Assembly: GCA_050273025.1 (NCBI GenBank)
Contig: CP158635.1
Location: 6,944,001-7,008,000 of the forward strand
Reading direction: 5' to 3'
Source: Cenococcum geophilum
Lineage: Eukaryota
Length of the DNA: 64,000 nucleotides
The notes under the pieces: generated by a model
What the model was told of the DNA's origin: nothing
The model's database searches: none
Seen by the model: the letters and a program-made list of their open reading frames with translations, nothing else
In this document: piece after piece, positions 6,879-52,700 of the stretch
How the letters are laid out: each line of letters opens with the position of its first letter
How positions within the stretch are numbered: position 1 is the stretch's first letter
Made by a program: the position numbers and the translations under genes

Positions 6879-7231
6879 GTTATGAGCCCGGATCGCACTA
6901 CCTGCTGAGCAATCACCTGGATCGCACTACCTATTGCACCATCAATCTACTACCTCATCTAAGAAGTCACTACTTCTACCACCTTTGCAGTGTTTCGAGC
7001 TTCTTCCAGGTACCGCTCTTGTACTCGTGATTATCTTTATTTACCAAACGGACGGACGATCGAACATCGAATACATCGAACATCGACCGAACCGAACCCG
7101 ACCGACCGTACGACCGACCGACGGACGAACTGACGAATCAAATTAAAAGTTCGGAACGTCCAAATAAGGTTACGCCAAGACGCTAACTAGACCCTAACCT
7201 AGACCCTTATTAACCTGTCAAAATTCAAAAA

Positions 7232-8962
7232 ATGACGACCTCTACCGAATCAAAAATCAACCTCATCCTTGACAAGCCATCCGATTGGATTCAATGGTTC
7301 TTTATCATCCAAGACACAGCCAAAACCAACGAGGTATGGCAGTATATCGACCCATCCAAAAAGAAAGACAAGCTTCTAAAGCTGGAACCACCGAATCGGC
7401 CCACACCAAGGGACATACTACCCACGGCTGCATCGATAGCAAAGCTAGACCCTACCCGGCTCACCGCCTACAACCAGCTCTACGCTGAATACAAAGACGA
7501 TCTGCGCATATACGAGAAGCAAAAACAGGCTATAAACGGTATCAGCAACTACATCGTTCGCTCGACATCGGTAGCCTACCTTCCACTCATCGACGGCCTC
7601 GAAACGGTACACGCACGGCTTCAAGCATTGAAGACTGCACTTGCCCCTACCACCTCAGGTCGAAAACACGACGTCCTCAATCAATACACGGCTCTGAAGA
7701 CCTACAATCAAAACCAAAGCATCGATAAATGGTTGAACAGCTGGCGGAACATCTACAAACTTGCGGAGCAGTTGGACCTACTAGACGTACAAGGATTCAG
7801 ACCATACTATGATTTTATTCGAGCAATCAAACCTATCTCTTCTAGCTTCGCAGGGGCACTAGAAGTAGACCTTATTCGCAAGGAACAAAAGGACGAAGCA
7901 GCCCCATCTATCATTGATCTAATTGAAGAATTCAAAGAACATTACCGCATGCAGCAAGCATTTCCTACCACTACTACAAATCACTCTGCCTTTGCAACTC
8001 TTCAAAACAATACCAATTCCAATTCCAATTCGATATGGCATAAGAAATGCATATGCGGCCTCACACATCGATACGACGACTGCCACTACATTGTCGAGCA
8101 GAAGCGCCCTCAAGGATGGAAACCAGATCCACACATCCAGCAGAAAGTAGATGAAATGATCTCATTTATACCTTGGGTTAAACGTATGGTCGATCGAATC
8201 CGAAAAAACACAGAAGAACAGGAAGCAAAGAGCACAGAATCTACAATTGATTTTGATTCCAAAACACCACCTTCTAAAACACCGACTAGCCATGCTGCTG
8301 TGTTTAGTACTGGTCAATTTCCATTCGAACTCCAGAACACCTGGATACTCGACCCTGGTGCAGATACCCACGTCTGCAACAACCAAGAAGACTTTACCTT
8401 CTCCTACCCAGCAGCAGAAGACGACTACCTAATTGCTGGCAGAAATTTCGAGAAGATTCAAGCCTACGGAACAGTAACTATTACTGTTGATACACCTACT
8501 GGGAAGTCAAAAATGAAGCTATCCCATGTAGCACTAGTACCTACTATGTTTACAAATATCGTAGCACTATCAAGGGCTACAGATAACGATATCCATTTCG
8601 ACTCAGGACGAAACTTGCTCTACCGTCTAGCAACTGGCAAAACGGTATGCTATGCGAAACGACTAGGGGGCCATTGGGCGCTGATTCACAGACAGCCTAA
8701 GCCTACGAATACCCTAGATTCGACAACTCAATCGACCTTCTCAATAAGAAGACATCAACCAAGCAGAATGGCCCGTAAACCAGTCGGAGCCACAGCTACA
8801 AAATGGCACAAAATTCTGGGCCATGCAGGACCTAACGCTATTGAGCAGCTTCCTAAGCACGTCAATGGCGTAGAGCTCGAAGAGGTAATCGACGAACGAG
8901 CACCACTCAAAATCGAATGCGGCTGCTATAGCCATGAGAGCACGGAATATTCGAGCAGCTAG
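7232..8962 (+). CDS. gag-pol: Copia Gag-protease-GAG-pre-integrase polyprotein, truncated (576 aa)
   Basis: Open ORF; Gag knuckle-like CICGLTHRYDDC, protease WILDPGADTHV, pre-integrase WHKILGHAG; the last ~15 codons come from antisense RT. Confidence 0.92.
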   Translation: MTTSTESKINLILDKPSDWIQWFFIIQDTAKTNEVWQYIDPSKKKDKLLKLEPPNRPTPRDILPTAASIAKLDPTRLTAYNQLYAEYKDDLRIYEKQKQAINGISNYIVRSTSVAYLPLIDGLETVHARLQALKTALAPTTSGRKHDVLNQYTALKTYNQNQSIDKWLNSWRNIYKLAEQLDLLDVQGFRPYYDFIRAIKPISSSFAGALEVDLIRKEQKDEAAPSIIDLIEEFKEHYRMQQAFPTTTTNHSAFATLQNNTNSNSNSIWHKKCICGLTHRYDDCHYIVEQKRPQGWKPDPHIQQKVDEMISFIPWVKRMVDRIRKNTEEQEAKSTESTIDFDSKTPPSKTPTSHAAVFSTGQFPFELQNTWILDPGADTHVCNNQEDFTFSYPAAEDDYLIAGRNFEKIQAYGTVTITVDTPTGKSKMKLSHVALVPTMFTNIVALSRATDNDIHFDSGRNLLYRLATGKTVCYAKRLGGHWALIHRQPKPTNTLDSTTQSTFSIRRHQPSRMARKPVGATATKWHKILGHAGPNAIEQLPKHVNGVELEEVIDERAPLKIECGCYSHESTEYSSS

Positions 8963-9585
8963 GGTTGCTGCATAGGTCTCTTCTTCGGTGATCTGCAGGT
9001 CTCCGCGGACACATAGTCGAGCTTTAAGCTTCTGTAGGTAGCCGTCGCTGTCGAGCTTATATTTGAAGACCCATTTCAGTGGAAGGATCTGCTCATTGCT
9101 TGCCTCTTCCTTTGGTACGATTTTGAATGTCCCTCGACGTTTTAGGTCATTGCATTCTTTTTCCATGGCCTTTTGAAAGCCAGTAGTCAAAGGATACAAT
9201 GACCTAAAACGTCGAGGGACATTCAAAATCGTACCAAAGGAAGAGGCAAGCAATGAGCAGATCCTTCCACTGAAATGGGTCTTCAAATATAAGCTCGACA
9301 GCGACGGCTACCTACAGAAGCTTAAAGCTCGACTATGTGTCCGCGGAGACCTGCAGATCACCGAAGAAGAGACCTATGCAGCAACCCTAGCTGCTCGAAT
9401 ATTCCGTGCTCTCATGGCTATCCCTTAGCACGGTAGCGTCCTACGATTAAGTGGTCTATGCGCGAACACCAGAATCAAAAGTACGCGTATGGCCACGGAG
9501 CCTTGATCCTATTGATTTTATTGGCTAGCTCTTATCGATACCGGTAGGACGCGAAGTACCGTGCTAAGGGATAGCAGCCGCATTC
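8915..9585. repeat. Long inverted repeat of Copia reverse-transcriptase sequence
   Basis: 8928-9152 and 9197-9421 are reverse complements with no mismatch seen (225 bp, 44-nt loop); the arm continues 8915-8929 / 9571-9585 beyond a MITE; it encodes LPLKWVFKYK...KLKARLCVRGDLQ. Confidence 0.95.
9422..9570. mobile_element. 149-bp MITE, CCCTT termini, AT TSD
   Basis: TIR CCCTTAGCACGGTA, inner IR GCGTCCTAC/GTAGGACGC; the empty site is the other hairpin arm (GGCT-AT-AGCAGCC). Confidence 0.9.
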
Positions 9586-29295: not shown

Positions 29296-29383
29296 TTAGC
29301 TTTATTATAGTTCTTTATTGGCTTAAATAAGCATATTTTAGCTTTTTAATAGCCTTTTAAGCGCCTAAAGTAATTAGGGTATA

Positions 29384-29469
29384 GGCCGTCAAAAACGGAC
29401 TCTGCACCTGTACGTAGTGACGGCTACGAACCTAAGTCTTCGAAGTTCAGACTTAGAGCCAACGCAGAG
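29384..29469 (+). ncRNA. HDV-like self-cleaving ribozyme
   Basis: P1 GGCCGTC/GACGGCT with G.U at position 1, P2 CTCTGC/GCAGAG, P3 ACC/AGT (RIP of GGT), L3 TGTACGT, P1.1 GT/AC, P4 CTAAGTCT/AGACTTAG, J4/2 GCCAAC. Confidence 0.88.
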
Positions 29470-30396
29470 ACGTCGCACAGCGTGCGATATAACCTAGTGG
29501 TGGTAGTTATAGGTATTATGGGCGGTAGTAAAAAGTTTTATATAGGATGGTGAGATCTTAAAAACAACTACTAAGTGCCCCTTATAGCAATAATAATAAC
29601 ACTATTCTCCTATTAAGGCACCTGTACGATCCAATATGGATGCGCGGCATTTAATAATATCCCCTAACCCCTAGTAGAGAGCATTAATAACCTCTTATGT
29701 TAACGAACAAGCAATTATAAACGAGTAACGAGCAAATATACGGCCCCTTCTAACCCCTAGGGCAATCGCCCGCGGAGCATACGGTTACTTACTATTAACT
29801 ATTAAATACTACCTAGCAGCCTAGATAACACCATACGGTTTTCCTATCTCCTCTTAAGAAGTGGTAACCCTTGGTGAGGGCCTAGTAACTAGGGCCTAGG
29901 CATAAAAGATACTTAGGTATATACGTCCCGCTCGCCTTTTAGTATAGTGGTTTATGGATAAATCCCCCTTACGCCTTCAATAGGCCTTAAGGGGGGGGGG
30001 GTATAGCGTATATAGTAATGGTTAATAAGAGATAGTATATGGGGGGTAGTTAAAATATGGAATACAACTATAAGTATACAGTAATTGAACGGCAAGGCCT
30101 AGCTAGGACATAGTAAACCCTAGCTAGGATAAGCTAGAGAAGGAAGTAGTGGTTCTTAAGGAGTTTGAATATCTAAGGAGGATAGGACGTAGCCGTAGGC
30201 CTGTAGGGCCGCCGCTACGGACAAACATGGCAAACTGGGATTTTTTATCCTACTGAGGTGGCTTATAGGGTTTTTCCTCCCCCAAACTGCAGGGTTTTCT
30301 TCCTATAAATTATAAGTTTTCCCCCTGTAACGGAGTAGTCTGCGTGGGCCTAAATAGGATCCGTATCAGACGTTAATTAAGAATTACTACTACTAC
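29384..30396 (+). mobile_element. Ribozyme-headed SINE-like non-LTR retroelement, family Y copy 1
   Basis: 13-bp TSD TAATTAGGGTATA (29371-83, 30397-409), (TAC)n tail, no long ORF; homologous to 42506-43503. Confidence 0.92.
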
Positions 30397-30810
30397 TAAT
30401 TAGGGTATATTTTTTCTATACCTCCCCAAACTATATCCTCTTATATATCGCTCTTTATAGATATTTAAGCAGATGTATAAGGTATCTGTTTTTATATAGG
30501 GTTAGAAAACTATAATGATTTCTTCTCCCTACTAGTAGATACCGTATCTTTATTATTAATGCAATTTTAGAATAATTTAAGGTTTCTAGTAGATTAGTAA
30601 TTAGGTATATTATCTTTAGGGTAGTAGTATATAGTAATGTTTTTATAAGTACTAATTGAGGATATATAGATTATATTAGTAATATATTTAAGCTTAGTTA
30701 AGGTAATATATATAATATATAATATCTTTATAAAGACAGTAAGTGATATATAGTTAAGAGATTGGATTTAAATATAAGTCAATTTAATAGTATATAAGGA
30801 CTGGGAGTAT

Positions 30811-35606: not shown

Positions 35607-38600
35607 TATTACGGGACACCCCTATAACACCTTATACACGTCCACCTGTTTCTACTAACTTAGCAACTAGAGACCGACCACAAGATAATAATTTGCGGCA
35701 ATCTAACGGCAATCTGCTATATTCTGCTATATTCCGCCAAGTTTTACTAAATCCTGCCAAGTTCTACTAGGACTACTACTTAAATCCTATCCTACTCTGT
35801 ATACGTGTTAACTAAGCAACTAAGCTAATAATATATACCCTTTCTTCTCGTTTTCCTACCTTCTCTCCTTATATAACGTTTTAACCTTATTATATAGTTT
35901 ATATATATAGCTTAATAATATCTACCTCGTTATATATTATTGTCGCTTATACTTACTCTATAACACTACGTTACGTTAACTACTTATACTACTATTAAAA
36001 TGTAGAACGTACCTAAAGTCCCTATAACGGCAGCCAATATACTTACTATACTTAAAGAGCAGATAGTAGGTTTATAGACCCTTATAGAACAAAAGGCCTA
36101 ATACTAATAATTAATTAAAGCCCTCTAAGAAGAAATCCGCATTCTTAAGATACCTACGCTAGAACTTTAAGACCAAACGCTATCCCTAAAGGCCTATATA
36201 CGGAACGCAAGCCCTAAACTAGTAGCAGTTATTTACCTTAAACCAATTACTACACCGCAACGATCCAAAAAACTACTAGACCCCCTAGTATTCACTAATA
36301 AATAACAAAAGCTTTAGTTATTCTTAAGCTGGCTTAGAAATAAGCTAACTAGTAACGCTAACTGCTACCTAACTAAAGCTAACTAACTACTATGCCCTAA
36401 GTTAGTTAGGAGAAGAGGTAGCTAACCTTATTAAACCTCTTTAGCCAAACTTAATATAAAGCCTAGTTAGACTTCTTAAAGCTATATACGGTAATCTAAA
36501 CCACTAAGCCACCGCTTAAAGGAAGATAAATTATATAGCTTAGGAAAAGAAAAGTTTCCTAATATACTTCTCTAAATTTAACCGCTACGTAAGGGAAATA
36601 GGCTGGAATAACTCCACACTAATTAATAGCCTTATTAAATCCCTAAGCCCCAAACTAAAAACTTCCCTAATAGACGTAGATCTACTAGAAGCCCTTAACG
36701 CCTATATAAACGTTATTAATAAACGGTATAATAATATACTGCGTCTAACATTAAAGCCCGCTCCTTAATACAATATAACAGCCCTATAAGTCCCTATTAA
36801 GTTATCTTCCTAGCCTAAGCACTCTAACGCTATATGCATTAACTCTAGAACTCTAAAGTATACCCTATTAGGGTCCCTTAAATAAGAACGACGCATTAAG
36901 CTAGGCCTTTACTTTAAATACGGAAGTAAGTGTTACGGACGCTTTAAGTACAATATTACAACTACTGGAAGAGGAGTCGGAAAAAGCTAGTTGGTTAATA
37001 CAAGCACAGTCTAGGATGGAACCCGTGGAACTATATAACGAGGAATAGTAACCGAGGTCACATAATAAGCTCTATAAGATCTATAAGGAACGCCTTACGT
37101 ACCTTATGTACCTCACGTACCTCACGTACAAGAAGGATTTCATAGGAGTATAGTTGTGTATTTAAGGACCCTTAGTCCCTACTTAGATAGTTCCTTCCTT
37201 ATAGTAATTCTCAGAATATAATTAGAGTTAATCTATTAGGCAACTACTCCACCAGTTATTATTACGTTGTTAACTTCCTACAGTGCCTACACACCTAGCC
37301 CATTAACAAGTCCACCGTAGTTCTTACTACAAGGCTCCGTTACACAATCACTACCTAGTTACGGTCTTAGAAGTTAAACAATATGCTACCAAAAGCAGCT
37401 ATAACAACGCTATTAACGGCAGCAACAACCTTAGGGTTAGGTAACAATACTAATATAGCAGATACTAACTCGCAACTAGTTATAGTCGGGCAGTTATAGG
37501 CAATAGTTAATTAGTTAACAGACAATAACGTAGCACTTAAAAATAGGGTTAATAGAATAGAAGCAGCAAAGGTTAAGTTACCTTTAATTAAGCAATTCTT
37601 AGGAGAGAGATCGAAGCTCAAGGGATTCCTTACGCAAATACACTTTAAAGTCACACAGAAAGGAGCAAAATTGGCAACACCTATGGATCAAGTAGCGTAC
37701 GTAGGATTATTCCTAACAGGAAGAGCGCTTAAATGGTTCAAACCCTACCTTACAGAAATATAGAAAAATAGTATAATAACTACCAATTAGAATATATGAT
37801 ATATGTTCTTAAGCTAAACTAAATTCGTAGAATAATTAACACAAATATTCGGGGACCCGGAAGCAACAACTATAGTAGAAAGAAAGCTTTAGGACCTAAT
37901 ACAGCAAACCTTAACAATTGAATATACAACGCAGTTTTAGATATTAGCTATATAAGTTAAATAGAACAATAAGGCGCTTATAGCACAGTATAAACAAGGA
38001 CTTAAGGCTAAAGTCTAGGACGTAATTATTCTAATAGAAGATGCGGACACCCTTAGGGAATTAATAGATTAAGTAATTAAGATTAATAATAGGATCTTCC
38101 AAAGGGAATAGGCTAAAAGAGGCTAGGATAGAGTTCTACAGTTATATAAGGCGTAGAGTACGCAATAACCAAAGCTAAATTAGAAACTATAGTATAGCGT
38201 AGAGCTAATAGACCTAAGCGGTACTAAAAAAACCTATAAGAGATAGAGAAAACAACTATAAAAACCTAGAAGTTAAGGATTAAGTAATTATAGGACTAAG
38301 AAGCATAGGTTAAACCAAAAATCTTAATAGCAGAAGACGTTTAAGCGGACTGTATAGCAAAAGCAATGGTTTAAAAATAGAGCTTATATAAATTGCGGAA
38401 AACAGGGTTATTTCGCTAAAGACTATAGAAGTAGTTAGAGTTATTATGTAGTAAAGGGAACCAGACTAATAGCATATAACACATACGTATAGAGGGACGA
38501 TAGTATACTATAAGAAATAAAAGAGTGTTTAATCTAAAGTTTTATATTTTATTATAACAACGCATGCCGAATTTATAAAGACGCTAAGTATGGCGCAAGC

Positions 38601-41600: not shown

Positions 41601-42505
41601 AGAAATATAAGTTCTTTACCAAGAAGACAGATTTCGTTAGATTTATTATTAAACTAGGCCAACTTAGTATAGATCCAAAGAAAATCAAGGCTATAGTAAA
41701 TTAGCAAAAACTAGAGAACGTTATACAGCTAAAATCGTTCCTAGGGTTTTACAATTACTGTAAAAGGTTTATAGCTTAATAGTTAAAGAATATTAAGCTA
41801 TTTATAAGGTTAATAAAAAAAGAAGAACCTTAGATATAGGGAGAAGAGTAAAGGAAATTATTTAAGGAGGTTAAGGAGTTGTTTACTTAAGACTTAATCC
41901 TTAAAATCTACCAACTAAAACTAGAGACAGTGGTCGAAACGGATATATTAGACTTTACACTAGGGGCGTACTTCCTATAGAAATATAAAGATAGATAGCA
42001 CTTAGTAGCATACTATAGTTAAAAGATAATACTACTAGAACTAAACTATAACATCTATAATAAGGAGTTATTAGGTATAGTTACAGCACTTTAAAAATAG
42101 AGAGCATTCTTATAAGGCACGGAAAAGCTATTTATAGTTAAGACGGATTATAAGAACCTAACGGGGTTCCTAATAACAAAAGAACTTAATTAGAGACAGG
42201 TTAAATAGGCAAAAATGCTTACAGAATACTATTTTAAGATTTAGTACACTAAGGGCACAGATAATATACGAGTAGATACTCTAAGTAGGAAGGCTAAACT
42301 ATAGAACAATAAGAAGCCATTAGGGGCTTTACTATAAAAAAATATAGATGGATTAATTAAATACAACTATCCGAAAATTATAGTAATAAAAGAAACCAGT
42401 TAAACCTATAAGGCACTAAAGAGTATATAGTTATAAAAGATCTAAGACGCATAGGCAGAGAATCTAGACTTAGAGCAGTACGAAAACCAAAAAGTAATAT
42501 ATATA

Positions 42506-43503
42506 GTAGTAATTCTTTGATTAACGTCTGATACGGATCCTACTGGCCCACGCAGACTACTCCGTCACAGGGGGGAAAACTTGTGTATTTACAGGAAGAA
42601 AACCCCTGCAGTTGGGTTGGGGGAGGAAAAACCCTATGAGCTACCTCAGTCGGATGAAAAACCCCGAATTACCATGTTTGTACGTAGCAGCGGCCCTGCG
42701 GGCCTACAGCACGTCCTCCTCCTTAGATGTTTTGAACTCCTTGGGAACCACTGCTTCCTTCTCCAGCTTATCCAAAGCTAGGGTTCACTACGTCCTAGCT
42801 AGGCCTTGCCGATCGATCGCCGTGTACTTATTGTTTTCTCCCGTATCTTAACCGTCCCCTATGTGCTATCTCTTGTTGACCATTGCCGTATACGCCTTGC
42901 CTCCTTCCCCCCTAGAGCCATTAAAGGCGTAAGGGGGATTCATCCGTTCTAACCACCGTAATACTAATAAGCGAGCGGGATATTGTGTATTTGGGTATCT
43001 TTTGTGCCTAGGCCCCAGCTAGGCCCTCTCTAAGGGTCACCACTCCGTCAAAAGGAGATAGGGAAAACCGTGGGTCGCAATCCAGGCTGCTAGGTAGCAT
43101 TCGGTAGTTGACGGCGAGTGACCGCATACTCCGCGGGCGATTGCCCTGGGGGTTAGGAGGGGCCGTATACTTGCTCGTTTGTGTTCGTTCGCGATCGTTC
43201 GTTCGTCGATGCTTTCAATTGGGGGTTAGGGGACGTTGGATTCCATCTCGTATCCGCGAGGATTACACAGGGTTGAATAAGAGCGTAGCAGTTGTCTACT
43301 ATGAAGGGGGTACCGTCAGTAGTGGTTTTCGAGATCTCACCATCCCATGTGAAAACTTTTCACTACCCCCCACAACATTTTGACCACCACCACGACCCCT
43401 ACCCGCAGCTGTGCGACGTCTCTGCGTTGGCTCTGCTGAGTCCAAAGACCAGCAGGTTCGTAGGCCTCACCACGTATAGGTGCAGAGTCCGATTTCGAGG
43501 ACT
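42506..43503 (-). mobile_element. Ribozyme-headed SINE-like element, family Y copy 2 (little RIP)
   Basis: 14-bp TSD AAGTAATATATATA (42492-505, 43504-17), TAC-repeat tail, absent from the paralogous site in C2 (~60315). Confidence 0.93.
43420..43503 (-). ncRNA. HDV-like ribozyme
   Basis: P1 AGTCCTC/GAGGCCT (one mismatch), P2 CTCTGC/GCAGAG, P3 ACC/GGT, L3 TATACGT with AC partner, P4 CTGCTG/CAGCAG, J4/2 GCCAAC. Confidence 0.82.
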
Positions 43504-44515
43504 AAGTAATATATATACTAAGAAATATCGCAAGAGAGTTTATTAAGTTATTCTATAAGGAACTAACTTAAGGACATAATAGAGCTATGGGCTTAGTGTT
43601 AAGACTCTAAAAGGAGTACATTATTAATAAAATCTAGGGACTAGTAAGGCAAGTTATAAAAGAATATCTAGATTACTAAAGAAATAAACTAGCAAGATAT
43701 AAGCTATATAAAGAGCTATAACCAGTTAAAATACCAGAAAGACCATAAGAGGTTATATTATAGGACTTTATTATAAAGTTACTAAAATTAAGAGATCCTA
43801 TTACTAAATAAGATTATAATGTAATTTTAGTAATAGTAAACAAGCTAATAAAGTGGGGATACTTTATAGCATGCACAGAAGAAATATTAGCGGAAGATAT
43901 CGCTAGAATCTATATTAAAGAAGTATTCGCAAAACATAGAGCACTAAGTAAGATTATATTAGATAGAGATCTAAGATTTATAGCAGCATTTTAGAAGGTA
44001 TTCTTGGCAGAATAAGGAGTTTAAGCAGCAACTTTTACCGCATATTATCCGCAGACAGACGGTTAAACGGAAAGATTAAATTAGACACTAAAATAGTATC
44101 TAAGGCACTATATTAATTATACACAGAATAATTAGGTATTATTATTACTAGTTACACAGTTCGTATACAATGCAATACCTTAAGAAGGAATAGGAACATT
44201 ACTATTTAAGGCGAATTACGGGTACGAACTAAGAATATCATTATCGCTATAATAAGCGAAGAAAATAAGTAGCACAGCTAAGTAAAGAATGGAGATACTA
44301 ATAAATCTTTATATAAACCTTATAAAGATAGTAAAGGTAGTATAATAGAAAATAAAAAAGTACTATAACGCTAAGAGATCTAAGGGACCAAATCTTAAGG
44401 AGGGAGATAAAGTATAGCTACTACATAAAAATTTTAAAAGTTAACAACTAAGTAAGAAGTTAGACTATGTTAAGCTAGGACCTTTTAAAATTAAGAAAAG
44501 GATTTTATTGGTTAT

Positions 44516-49700: not shown

Positions 49701-52700
49701 AGCTAGGTAAAGATCTTTACTAAACTTAATATCCGCCAAGCTTTCCACTGAATTAGGATAGACCCTATATCCGAAGATTTAACAACGTTCCGTACCCGCT
49801 ATGGTTCCTATAAATATAAAGTTCTTCCTTTTAGACTAATAAACGGACCGGCTACGTACCAAAGGTATATAAATAACGTTCTTTTTAATTACCTTAACGA
49901 ATTCTGCACGGTATACTTAGACGATATTCTTATATACTTAGATAACGAACTTAAGTATTAAGTTTATATTAAGAAGGTCCTAGAGAGACTATAGAACGCG
50001 GGCTTATAAGTCAATATTAAGAAATGCGAGTTTAGGGTAAAATGTATAAAATACCTTGGGTTTATTATAACTATGGAAGGAATTAAGGTTAACCCTAAGA
50101 AGGTAGAGGCAATCCGTAACTAGAAGCCCCCTTATATAGTAAAAGGAATCTAGTCCTTCCTTAGTTTTTATAATTTCTACCGCTAGTTTATCCGTAACTA
50201 TAGAATTATAGCAAAACCTCTTATATAACTAACTAGGAAGGACACGCCTTTTATCTTTAATAATAGCTATATAGAGGCCTTTAAAGAGGTAAAGGATTGG
50301 CTTATTTCTTTTCTAATCCTTTATTACTATAACCCGGACCTTAAATTAATGCTAGAAACAGACGCCTTTAATAGGGTTGTAGCGGGAATCCTATTACAGT
50401 TATATCTAGACAGCGAATGGTACCCTATAGCTTTCTTCTTAAAGATAATAGACCCGGCTAAGTGTAACTACAAAGTATATAATAAAGAAATGCTAGCTAT
50501 TATTTAATTACTCTCCTAATGGCGTGTAGAGCTTAAAGGTACGAACTCCCGGATTAAGATATATATAGATTATAAAGCCCTAGAATACTTTATAATTATA
50601 AAGTAGCTTATAGGGCGATAAGCCTAGTAGGCCGAAATACTCTCCTAATTCTTCTTTACGATTATATATTGTTCTAGCAAGTAAAACTCTAAGGCTAATG
50701 CCCTAACCCGAAGAGAACAAGATATAGGACCCTAGGATAAGCTAAAGACCCAATATCGGACGCGCGCCCTCCTTTATCTAGAACAGCTCGACCTATAGAT
50801 CCTTAAGGAGCTAGACTCCTAGTAAAACGAGCTAGCACTAATAGAGGAGTCCTTAGATAAGCTAATAGGGCTAATTAACCGCCTCCTAACTATAAACCGC
50901 ACGGCTAATGCCCTAAGGGCCCTCCGTAAACAAGCCGCGAAAGGAGACCCCGATTTTAAGATGGAGGAAGGATTGCTCCTATACCAGGAGCGGCTTATAG
51001 TCCCTAATGTTAATAATCTACAGACTAAACTAATCCGCGAAGCTTATTGCTAAGTCTCTACGGCATACCCTAGCAAGAACAAGACCCGTAAAATTATTAA
51101 CTGCCGCTACTATTAGCCGAGAATGGTTGCGGATATTAATTAATATATATAGAACTGCGAAGACTGCTGGAGAGCTATAATCCTACGGGATAAGACCCTA
51201 GGACTACTTAAGCCACTCCCGATACTAGAGCGCCCTTAGCAGTATATCTTTATAGACTTCTATAAACTACCTAGGGACCGTGACGGATACGATATAGTTA
51301 TAGTTATAGTTAACCGCTTTAGTAAACGCCCGTTTTTAATTCCATATTATAAGAATATCGATGCCAAAGAGGCAGCCTAGCTATATATCTATTACGTCTA
51401 CCGAATCTACAGACTACTAGATACTATTATATCCGATTGCGGGCCGTAGTTTATATTGGCCTTCTGGAATAAGTTTACCTAGATCCTAGGCATTAAGCTA
51501 AAGCTTTCTACGGCTTATTACCCCTAGATAGACGGTTAGACAGAGATTGTAAATTAGTACCTAGACTAGAGGCTTAGGCCCTTTATTAACTATTTCTAGG
51601 ATAACTAGTCTAAACTACTACCCTTAATAGACTACGCGCAAGCAACCCTACCCTATAACTCCACAGGGTTTGCTCTAATTTAGCTGGAAATAGGATACTT
51701 ACCCCGTATAAGCTTTAACTAAAAAAGGCTAGAAGAACCCTAAACTATATAAGAGAAGCTATCCTATGCTAAGGCCTAATAGTACGCTAAATGATTAGAG
51801 GAGGCCTAGACGGTAGCCCGCGAGAACCTAGAAAAAGCTTAGAGGTTAATGGAATAGTAGGCGAACAAACACCGTCGAGAGCCCAATTTTACCCCTGGCG
51901 ATATGGTCTAGGTTATAATAAGAAATTAGAGGACTGAACGACCTAGCTATAAGCTAGACTACTAGATAGTAGGACCGTATAAGGTTCTTAAGAAGATAGG
52001 CAACTTGTATAAGATAAAGCTCCCAGACTTAATTAGGGTTTACCCTATCTTTTCGCCAGATAAGTTACGGAAAGCTATAAACGACCTATTGCCTAGATAA
52101 AAGAACGAGCCTTCCCTACTAGTTTAAGTAAACGGTAATAACAAATAGGAGGTTAACAAAATACTGGCCTATAAGATAGTACGGGGAGTGCTAAAATACC
52201 GTGTTTAATAGAAGGGCTATAATCCTGACCTAACCTAGTACCCTATATGGAACTTTATAGGCTGCCCCTAGAAGCTTAAAGAATTCTATAACTAATACCC
52301 TAATGCGCCTAGACCCCCAAAGTACCTAGACAAATAGTTGGAATACTGGCATAATAAAGACGATAAGTTACCGAAAGAATATAGGGACAAAAACACCCTA
52401 AAGCCCTAATACAGCTGTCTGCTAAATTCTACCATATTCTGCCGTTTTCTGCTAGTACCGTAAAATTTTAGATGTCTAGGAACTTTAACCGCCGGTTAAA
52501 GTTGTCTAATTAGTTAGATCCGTGCTAAGACTTTTAGCGGCTACTCTTTTTGGCCTAGTGCTTCCACTTAGCCTACAATCGCCTTTTGTACTTAGTTAGG
52601 ACGGACTCGTGTCCCCTTTTATCTCCTTATCTTATATTTTTATAATCCTACATTTATAAGCCTAGTGCTACCCTATTTTTTTTAACTAAGCCTAAGGGCA

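Follow-up and report, generated by a model that had tools for sequence, protein, structure and literature searches.

Background

[quoted passage not shown] The 3' end of R2 SIDEs is recognised by the protein of the parent element, and their 5' end arises by self-cleavage of a co-transcript (PMC3414825). Here we describe a fungal element of comparable organization: within a 64,000-nucleotide stretch of Cenococcum geophilum DNA (contig CP158635.1, positions 6,944,001 to 7,008,000 of the forward strand; hereafter the window), two copies, A and B, of a dispersed, non-coding element of about 1 kb begin at nucleotide 1 of an HDV-like fold. The family to which they belong probably consists of non-autonomous retroelements without long terminal repeats (non-LTR), resident in a fungus affected by repeat-induced point mutation (RIP), which is known to occur in fungi, and has an RNA that starts with an HDV-like self-cleaving ribozyme. 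The idea of ribozyme-headed non-autonomous elements is already known from trypanosome NARTc and Drosophila R2 SIDEs; the fungal example appears to be new.

The classical short interspersed nuclear elements (SINEs) of fungi, such as Mg-SINE and Foxy, are short and non-coding, have tRNA-related heads for RNA polymerase III (Pol III), and are thought to be mobilised by long interspersed nuclear elements (LINEs). Among fungal HDV-class ribozymes, Li and Breaker (2017) reported 230 variant representatives in 26 fungal species, mentioned 11 earlier canonical ones, and found that two fungal variants cleave in vitro; they noted "widely variable gene associations", and the words transposon and retrotransposon are never used in their text (PMC5640933). 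[quoted passage not shown] Searches of the full-text literature, a corpus without Repbase and Dfam, found no paper connecting HDV-type ribozymes of fungi with retroelements and nothing usable on (TAC)n-tailed fungal LINEs; the statement of the initial annotation of the window, that no fungal class of such elements is known to have been described, agrees with this corpus.

Results and discussion

A dispersed family that begins at one base

The initial annotation described copy A as a retroelement bounded by a 13-bp target-site duplication (TSD) and ending in a (TAC)n tail, and all the features that it named are present at the positions listed in Table 1. That copy A stands for a non-coding retroelement present in many copies, flanked by TSDs and ending in a microsatellite tail, is borne out by copy B and by at least 122 loci beyond the window, which were recovered from public metagenome contigs by scanning with the two least variable motifs separated by a gap. 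This search pattern fixed P2, the 5' strand of P3 and J4/2; the loci are 3-kb pieces of contigs, and the family searches reported below cover the window and these pieces.

The family is dispersed and non-coding, and it starts at nucleotide 1 of the HDV-type fold in every copy examined. The boundary was evaluated with 122 distinct 60-mers centred on the putative start, 120 of them from the loci and two from copies A and B; L053 and L082 were dropped, as the contig end truncates them. Among these 122 listed heads, the upstream halves are unrelated, with 0.03-0.23 bits at positions -8 to -1 compared with 1.72 bits at +1 and 2.0 bits at +2; nucleotide 1 is G in 117, A in four and T in one; and 92 heads have GGCCGTC as their P1 heptamer while 14 have GGTCCTC, the other 16 being variants that derive mostly by transitions from these. 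The 5' ends of these copies pile up at P1 nucleotide 1, a base that abuts the TSD in copy A as initially annotated.

An exact TSD of at least 8 nt ending at -1 is present in 48 of the 61 copies that are testable (having enough flank) among the matches listed, with lengths of 15 nt (17 copies), 14 nt (16), 13 nt (5), 16 nt (3) and others; in one of the 48 (L069) the TSD is not beside the tail and is probably a chance match, and the 13 failures include five copies interrupted by other insertions. The first base of the TSD is T in 37 of 46 and the second is A in 36 of 46, and the next four positions are nearly all A or T; this TA(W)4 start suggests that a sequence-selective endonuclease may be involved. 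An insertion-site signal is visible at -15 to -10, where position -12 is without any G or C among the 122 listed copies. Most tails consist of (TAC)1-5, while some are (TAT)n and two are TC-rich; full copies measure about 990-1050 nt. There is also a shorter family of about 816 nt (L030:498-1564 and L096), which has the same ribozyme head and 3' end around an unrelated, GC-richer body; its head combines the P1 of subfamily 1 with the P4 of subfamily 2, the subfamily of copy B.

The family displays the features of a non-LTR element inserted by target-primed reverse transcription: TSDs of variable sequence, a 3' simple-repeat tail, dispersed copies and an empty-site joint. The joint was found at copy B, which is 76% identical to copy A over 1032 columns (BLAST of the element against the window) and 94.6% identical to metagenome locus L056, when public sequencing runs were compared with positions 42200-43800 for boundary and expression evidence. 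In two DNA contigs of run X1, position 42491 is joined to 43504; 1012 nt are skipped, and 13 letters can be assigned to either side. This joint sets copy B's 5' end at 43503, P1 nucleotide 1. The flanks of copy B (42200-42491 and 43518-43800) show a summed contig depth about tenfold that of the element and are therefore part of a more abundant repeat into which copy B was inserted, so that the joint represents the empty site in paralogous copies of that surrounding repeat.

Copy A differs from the family majority at 172 of 1018 aligned positions, of which 91 are C>T or G>A changes, mostly in CpA, TpG or CpG context. The window as a whole is AT-rich, with a TpA/ApT ratio of 1.1-2.0 and a (CpA+TpG)/(ApC+GpT) ratio mostly of 0.2-0.5. 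This RIP-like mutation spectrum indicates fungal DNA and so supports the fungal origin assigned to the element initially. Both window copies are likely to be dead insertions that were RIP-mutated afterwards. In one of the metagenome loci, an open reading frame (ORF) beside an element copy (L025:386-748, minus strand) contains DUF3716 (E = 1.2e-18), a domain found mainly in fungi, which fits a fungal origin of the metagenome contigs.

Table 1. Positions of the two element copies, their parts, and other retroelement remnants in the window
Feature	Position	Strand	Description
Element copy A	29384..30396	+	1013 nt, non-coding, heavily RIP-mutated
Upstream TSD of copy A	29371..29383	+	TAATTAGGGTATA; exact 13-nt repeat of 30397-30409
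Downstream TSD of copy A	30397..30409	+	TAATTAGGGTATA again; exact 13-nt direct repeat
Tail of copy A	30385..30396	+	(TAC)4
HDV-like ribozyme fold of copy A	29384..29469	+	First 86 nt; nested double pseudoknot read from sequence
P1 of copy A	29384-29390 with 29419-29425		GGCCGTC with GACGGCT; closing wobble G29384.T29425
J1/2 of copy A	29391-29399
P2 of copy A	29400-29405 with 29464-29469
P3 of copy A	29406-29408 with 29416-29418		One C.A mismatch, at A29416
L3 of copy A	29409-29415		7 nt
P1.1 of copy A	29410-29411 with 29426-29427		Two pairs
P4 of copy A	29432-29439 with 29449-29456
J4/2 of copy A	29457-29463		AGCCAAC; CCAA(C) at 29459-29463
Conserved 3' module of copy A	30332..30384	+	Predicted stem GTCTG 30338-30342 with CAGAC 30367-30371
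Element copy B	42506..43503	-	998 nt, subfamily 2, less mutated; ends in TACTAC
HDV-like fold of copy B	43420..43503	-	P1 AGTCCTC with GAGGCCT; P3 intact (ACC/GGT)
Upstream TSD of copy B	43504..43517	-	TATATATATTACTT; 14 nt
Downstream TSD of copy B	42492..42505	-	TATATATATTACTT; 14 nt, consistent with the 13 shared letters at the empty-site joint
Copia-type LTR retrotransposon remnant	7214-9425		The only long ORF of the window (582 aa), with a Pol_BBD domain
Weak RVT_2 pieces of the Copia remnant	8741-9307 and 9177-9425	- and +, respectively	Pfam
Gypsy/Ty3 remnants	37515-37760 and 49752-50504		Ty3 capsid-like piece; then RVT_1 followed by RT_RNaseH_2

An HDV-like fold at the head of the element

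The HDV-like double pseudoknot that the initial annotation placed in the first 86 nt of copy A can indeed be drawn there, and it was evaluated across the family in 104 distinct ribozyme sequences, for which 25 pairs in seven helices give 2497 pair cells. Standard pairs are formed in 96.4% of these cells, compared with 26.7-42.0% when the partners are slid by 1-3 columns, and P1, P1.1, P2, P3 and P4 stand in the canonical nested double-pseudoknot order. The pair closing P1 at the putative cleavage site is G.U in 99 of the 104 sequences, A-U in four and another combination in one; pair 5 of P1 is G-C in 81 and C-G in 13; P1.1 is G-C/U-A in most, its G-C being broken in 27, mostly by G>A; and L3 has 7 nt, which read UGUACGU in the majority. 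The third pair of P3 is C-G in 95 of the 104, copy A being among the nine in which it is broken, and copy B has G at the equivalent position, leaving its P3 intact; the proposal that A29416 was formerly a G is therefore well founded. P4 occurs in 76 sequence variants among 123 copies, shortened and rebuilt forms included, and it remains a hairpin of at least 5 bp in 117 of the 123.

Several of these regularities have to be read with the sampling in mind. Invariance of P2, of the 5' strand of P3 and of J4/2 in the loci is uninformative because the search pattern fixed them, and the catalytic-C motif of J4/2 counts independently only in the two window copies, both of which carry CCAA(C); in copy A we take the putative catalytic C to be 29459, on the basis of the C-N-R-A rule for J4/2. 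Covariation is modest because the sequences are closely related. The differences between subfamilies are changes in active master copies and were therefore exposed to selection. The P1 of copy B has a G>A change at nucleotide 1, in a TpG context, C-G in place of copy A's G-C at pair 5, and a U-C mismatch at pair 3; across the family, P1 pair 3 is unpaired in 15 of the 104 sequences. In two loci (L098:285-371 and L121:301-377), the ribozyme has 3 nt inserted into the 3' strand of P1 (GACTTGGCCT / GACTTAGCCT); like subfamily 2, these variants could pair G1 with C instead of U.

A pseudoknot-free thermodynamic fold of the copy A head recovers P2 and P4, with a z-score of -2.55 and with 4 of 200 shuffles folding equally well or better. 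In the same minimum-free-energy fold, P1 gives way to a small hairpin that its 5' strand forms with CGG(A) of J1/2 (29386-29398), and inspection of the head sequences indicates that a comparable pairing is possible in both subfamilies. On this prediction, the pairing could constitute a competing "off" fold.

The TSD and the family go beyond chance, but the fold of copy A taken alone does not. A descriptor of HDV-like ribozymes was written by us in a strict version and in a relaxed version that allows one mismatch in P3. The relaxed version accepts 16 start sites in the window, 29384 and 15 others, and the strict version accepts 65 of 121 listed heads compared with eight other sites in 475,846 scanned bases of the loci. 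As a stand-alone test of significance the descriptor was rejected, its chance rate being too high in this AT-rich DNA. Because it is unspecific, the weight of the case lies with the family, in which the fold coincides with the element's exact terminus, and not with the fold of copy A.

The 3' module and the body of the element

The last ~70 nt are nearly invariant across subfamilies in 46 aligned 3' ends, and the conserved 3' module is presumed to be the site that the reverse transcriptase recognises. In locus L011 the 3' end occurs a second time, in inverted orientation, at L011:2846-2997 (minus strand), about 1.3 kb downstream of the first copy.

There is no conserved ORF in the element: the longest ORF with an ATG start in any copy has 112 aa, and most copies are without an ORF of at least 60 aa. 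Neither the window nor six loci examined with ARAGORN contain a tRNA-like head detected by that program, and an internal Pol III promoter head derived from tRNA, 7SL or 5S was not found by ARAGORN in the same sequences or by Rfam. The initial statement that copy A has no long ORF and no recognisable tRNA or 5S head is in accord with the ORF listing and with these searches. Since the Pol III head that strictly defines a SINE is not found, "SINE-like" or "SIDE-like" is the safer name.

Transcription of the family

The family is represented in RNA. Raw reads of RNA run X21, of which about 12% was read, yielded 14,660 reads placed on 42200-43800, all of them in bins spanning copy B, with no read in the flank bins; for most of them the likeness to copy B is 80-95%, so that they come from other copies. 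First mates lie on the plus strand about 10-50 times more often than on the minus strand in most bins (4-50 overall), which in the usual stranded libraries indicates RNA of the minus strand, the sense of copy B. Contigs of run X22, which is guessed to be an RNA run, are likewise confined to the element. These data support transcription of the family in sense.

Relation to described ribozymes and retroelements

The element resembles NARTc and other non-autonomous elements of the L1Tc/ingi clade, which are dispersed non-LTR elements with an HDV-like ribozyme in the first ~77-86 nt, at the exact 5' end of the RNA (PMC3383444, PMC4035085, PMC6765202). Unlike trypanosomatid NARTc, it has a fungal host and a (TAC)n tail, and the two have no sequence similarity; NARTc is a truncated L1Tc, whereas no LINE parent is seen here in the window or the loci. 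The Drosophila R2 SIDEs are likewise short and non-coding with a 5' HDV-like ribozyme (PMC3414825). R2 and its SIDEs insert at one site of 28S rDNA, and insertion at that site is not seen here among the listed heads: the 122 copies have different AT-rich flanks, with TSDs of 13-16 bp starting with TA(W)4. The classical fungal SINEs are also short non-coding retroelements; unlike them, the present element has a ribozyme-fold head and no tRNA head (ARAGORN, Rfam).

Like the variants of Li and Breaker, which are HDV-class ribozymes found in many copies in genomes of Pezizomycotina (PMC5640933), the heads described here are multi-copy and HDV-like. In those variants, which come from Eurotiomycetes, the pair at the cleavage site is C-G, P4 contains an E-loop, and P2 and P3 are separated by an extra nucleotide (PMC5640933). 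Compared by these described features only, the present heads differ in having G.U at the site in 99 of 104 sequences and a plain hairpin as P4; as to the extra nucleotide, C29405 can be read either as the last pair of P2 or as an insert.

A proposed cycle and its alternatives

By analogy with R2 and with L1Tc and NARTc, we infer that the element is excised from a longer transcript and copied by the borrowed machinery of a LINE. A master copy would be transcribed, most likely within a longer transcript; the ribozyme would fold and cut just 5' of G1, giving an RNA that starts at P1 nucleotide 1, as the fold and the precedents of R2 and L1Tc suggest; a LINE-type endonuclease and reverse transcriptase would recognise the 3' stem and the (UAC)n tail; and the endonuclease would nick AT-rich DNA at a TA(W)4 site, from which target-primed reverse transcription would continue to the very 5' end. 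Because reverse transcription would reach the RNA's 5' end, each new copy would regain a complete ribozyme. The end state itself is observed: copies have the whole ribozyme, a (TAC)n tail and a TSD of 13-16 bp abutting G1.

A number of observations weigh against this explanation. Subfamily 2 (at least 17 copies) has a U-C mismatch in the 7-bp register of P1, or alternatively a bulged U with a G-C closing pair. The strict descriptor rejects both window copies and all subfamily 2 copies and accepts three chance sites in the window, and the chance rate of the descriptor in this DNA is about one site per 40-60 kb. The HDV-type families of Rfam are HDV_ribozyme, CPEB3 and those with names beginning in drz-; no Rfam family matches at the gathering threshold in the window, none matches at E<=1 on six unmutated loci, and on 29330-29520 at E<=10 nothing appears except an unrelated snoRNA at E = 5.6, so that the covariance-model search proposed with the initial annotation fails to identify the ribozyme even on unmutated copies. 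A partner is likewise missing from the sequences searched. Pfam detects no LINE domain in the ORFs of the window, but only RVT_2, a Ty3 capsid, and RVT_1 with RT_RNaseH_2 (85 of 98 stop-free ORFs of at least 55 aa were scanned, the other 13 coming from the region of the Copia ORF, where the two long ORFs were scanned on their own), and no LINE in the ORFs of the loci, but only DUF3716 and two sub-threshold matches (21 of 41 ORFs of at least 110 aa, the remaining 20 overlapping element copies); BLAST of the 3' 150 nt against the window and loci returns only element ends, plus the inverted copy in L011. Copies truncated at the 5' end would escape the search pattern used. In the RNA data, 491 molecules have their end at 43491, a position 12 nt within copy B, and the RNA 5' end cannot be placed to the base; this end may reflect alignment clipping, because the first 12 nt of copy B differ from the commoner subfamily at five positions. 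Finally, transcription from a fixed start would account equally well for the sharp 5' end.

One alternative concerns the origin of the element and is compatible with the ribozyme mechanism: the element may be an internal-deletion derivative, consisting of the 5' and 3' untranslated regions of a ribozyme-headed LINE, in the manner of R2 SIDEs and NARTc. Such an origin has a precedent in the R2 SIDEs (PMC3414825), and the ~816-nt family, with its shared ends and different body, is what repeated deletion or recombination from a longer parent would produce. No reverse-transcriptase ORF is found within 1.5 kb after any of the 122 listed ribozyme heads, however, and in the window and the 3-kb locus pieces the 3' module occurs only at the ends of 1-kb elements. 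We regard derivation from such a LINE as possible, though somewhat short of probable.

A second alternative is that an internal promoter within the first 80-200 nt sets the transcription start and with it the sharp 5' end, the HDV-like fold being inert or having another role, for instance in protein binding or in the stability of the RNA. In its favour, every copy begins at one and the same base, RNA coverage in runs X21 and X22 is confined to the element with no read-through seen, and the first 77 nt of L1Tc and NARTc are both an internal promoter and a ribozyme (PMC3383444). The missing read-through is uninformative, however, since reads of other copies cannot map to the flanks of copy B; ARAGORN finds no tRNA-like Pol III head; and a promoter alone offers no explanation for four helices kept in HDV topology, the G-C to C-G swap in P1 or the rebuilt P4 hairpin. 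A promoter as the sole source of the 5' end is therefore unlikely. A variant in which the head is both promoter and ribozyme, as in trypanosome Pr77/L1TcRz (the same 77 nt), is possible. Chance resemblance in AT-rich, G.U-permissive sequence, for which the 16 relaxed start sites in the window, the strict descriptor's three sites there and eight in 476 kb of loci, and the missing Rfam match could be adduced, is very improbable given a fold that starts exactly at element nucleotide 1 in more than 120 copies, pairs far better in register than when slid, shows a compensatory change in P1, and retains the structure of P4 while its sequence varies.

Other retroelements of the window

The other retroelements recognised in the window are the Copia and Gypsy/Ty3 remnants listed in Table 1. 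The 582-aa ORF of the Copia remnant falls with Copia-like gag-pol clusters in the ESM Atlas, which give no useful indication of taxonomy.

Conclusions

With this family, fungi gain a clear case of an abundant, transcribed retroelement in which an HDV-like ribozyme fold coincides with the 5' end, and annotation gains a definition of a repeat family that is missed both by SINE finders that look for tRNA heads and by Rfam. More than 120 natural variants of one putative ribozyme, including those with a rebuilt P4 and a tolerated mismatch in P1, provide material for structure-function work. The family also offers a testable explanation for the orphan HDV-type ribozymes of fungal genomes. We suggest, tentatively, that ribozyme-capped, promoterless SINE-like elements may be a general and unrecognised class of fungal transposable element, the RNA of which would be freed from read-through transcripts of the host or of neighbouring transposable elements, and that the main niche of HDV ribozymes in fungi may be the formation of retroelement 5' ends. 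If this is true, hundreds of orphan HDV-type ribozymes of Pezizomycotina could be the heads of such elements.

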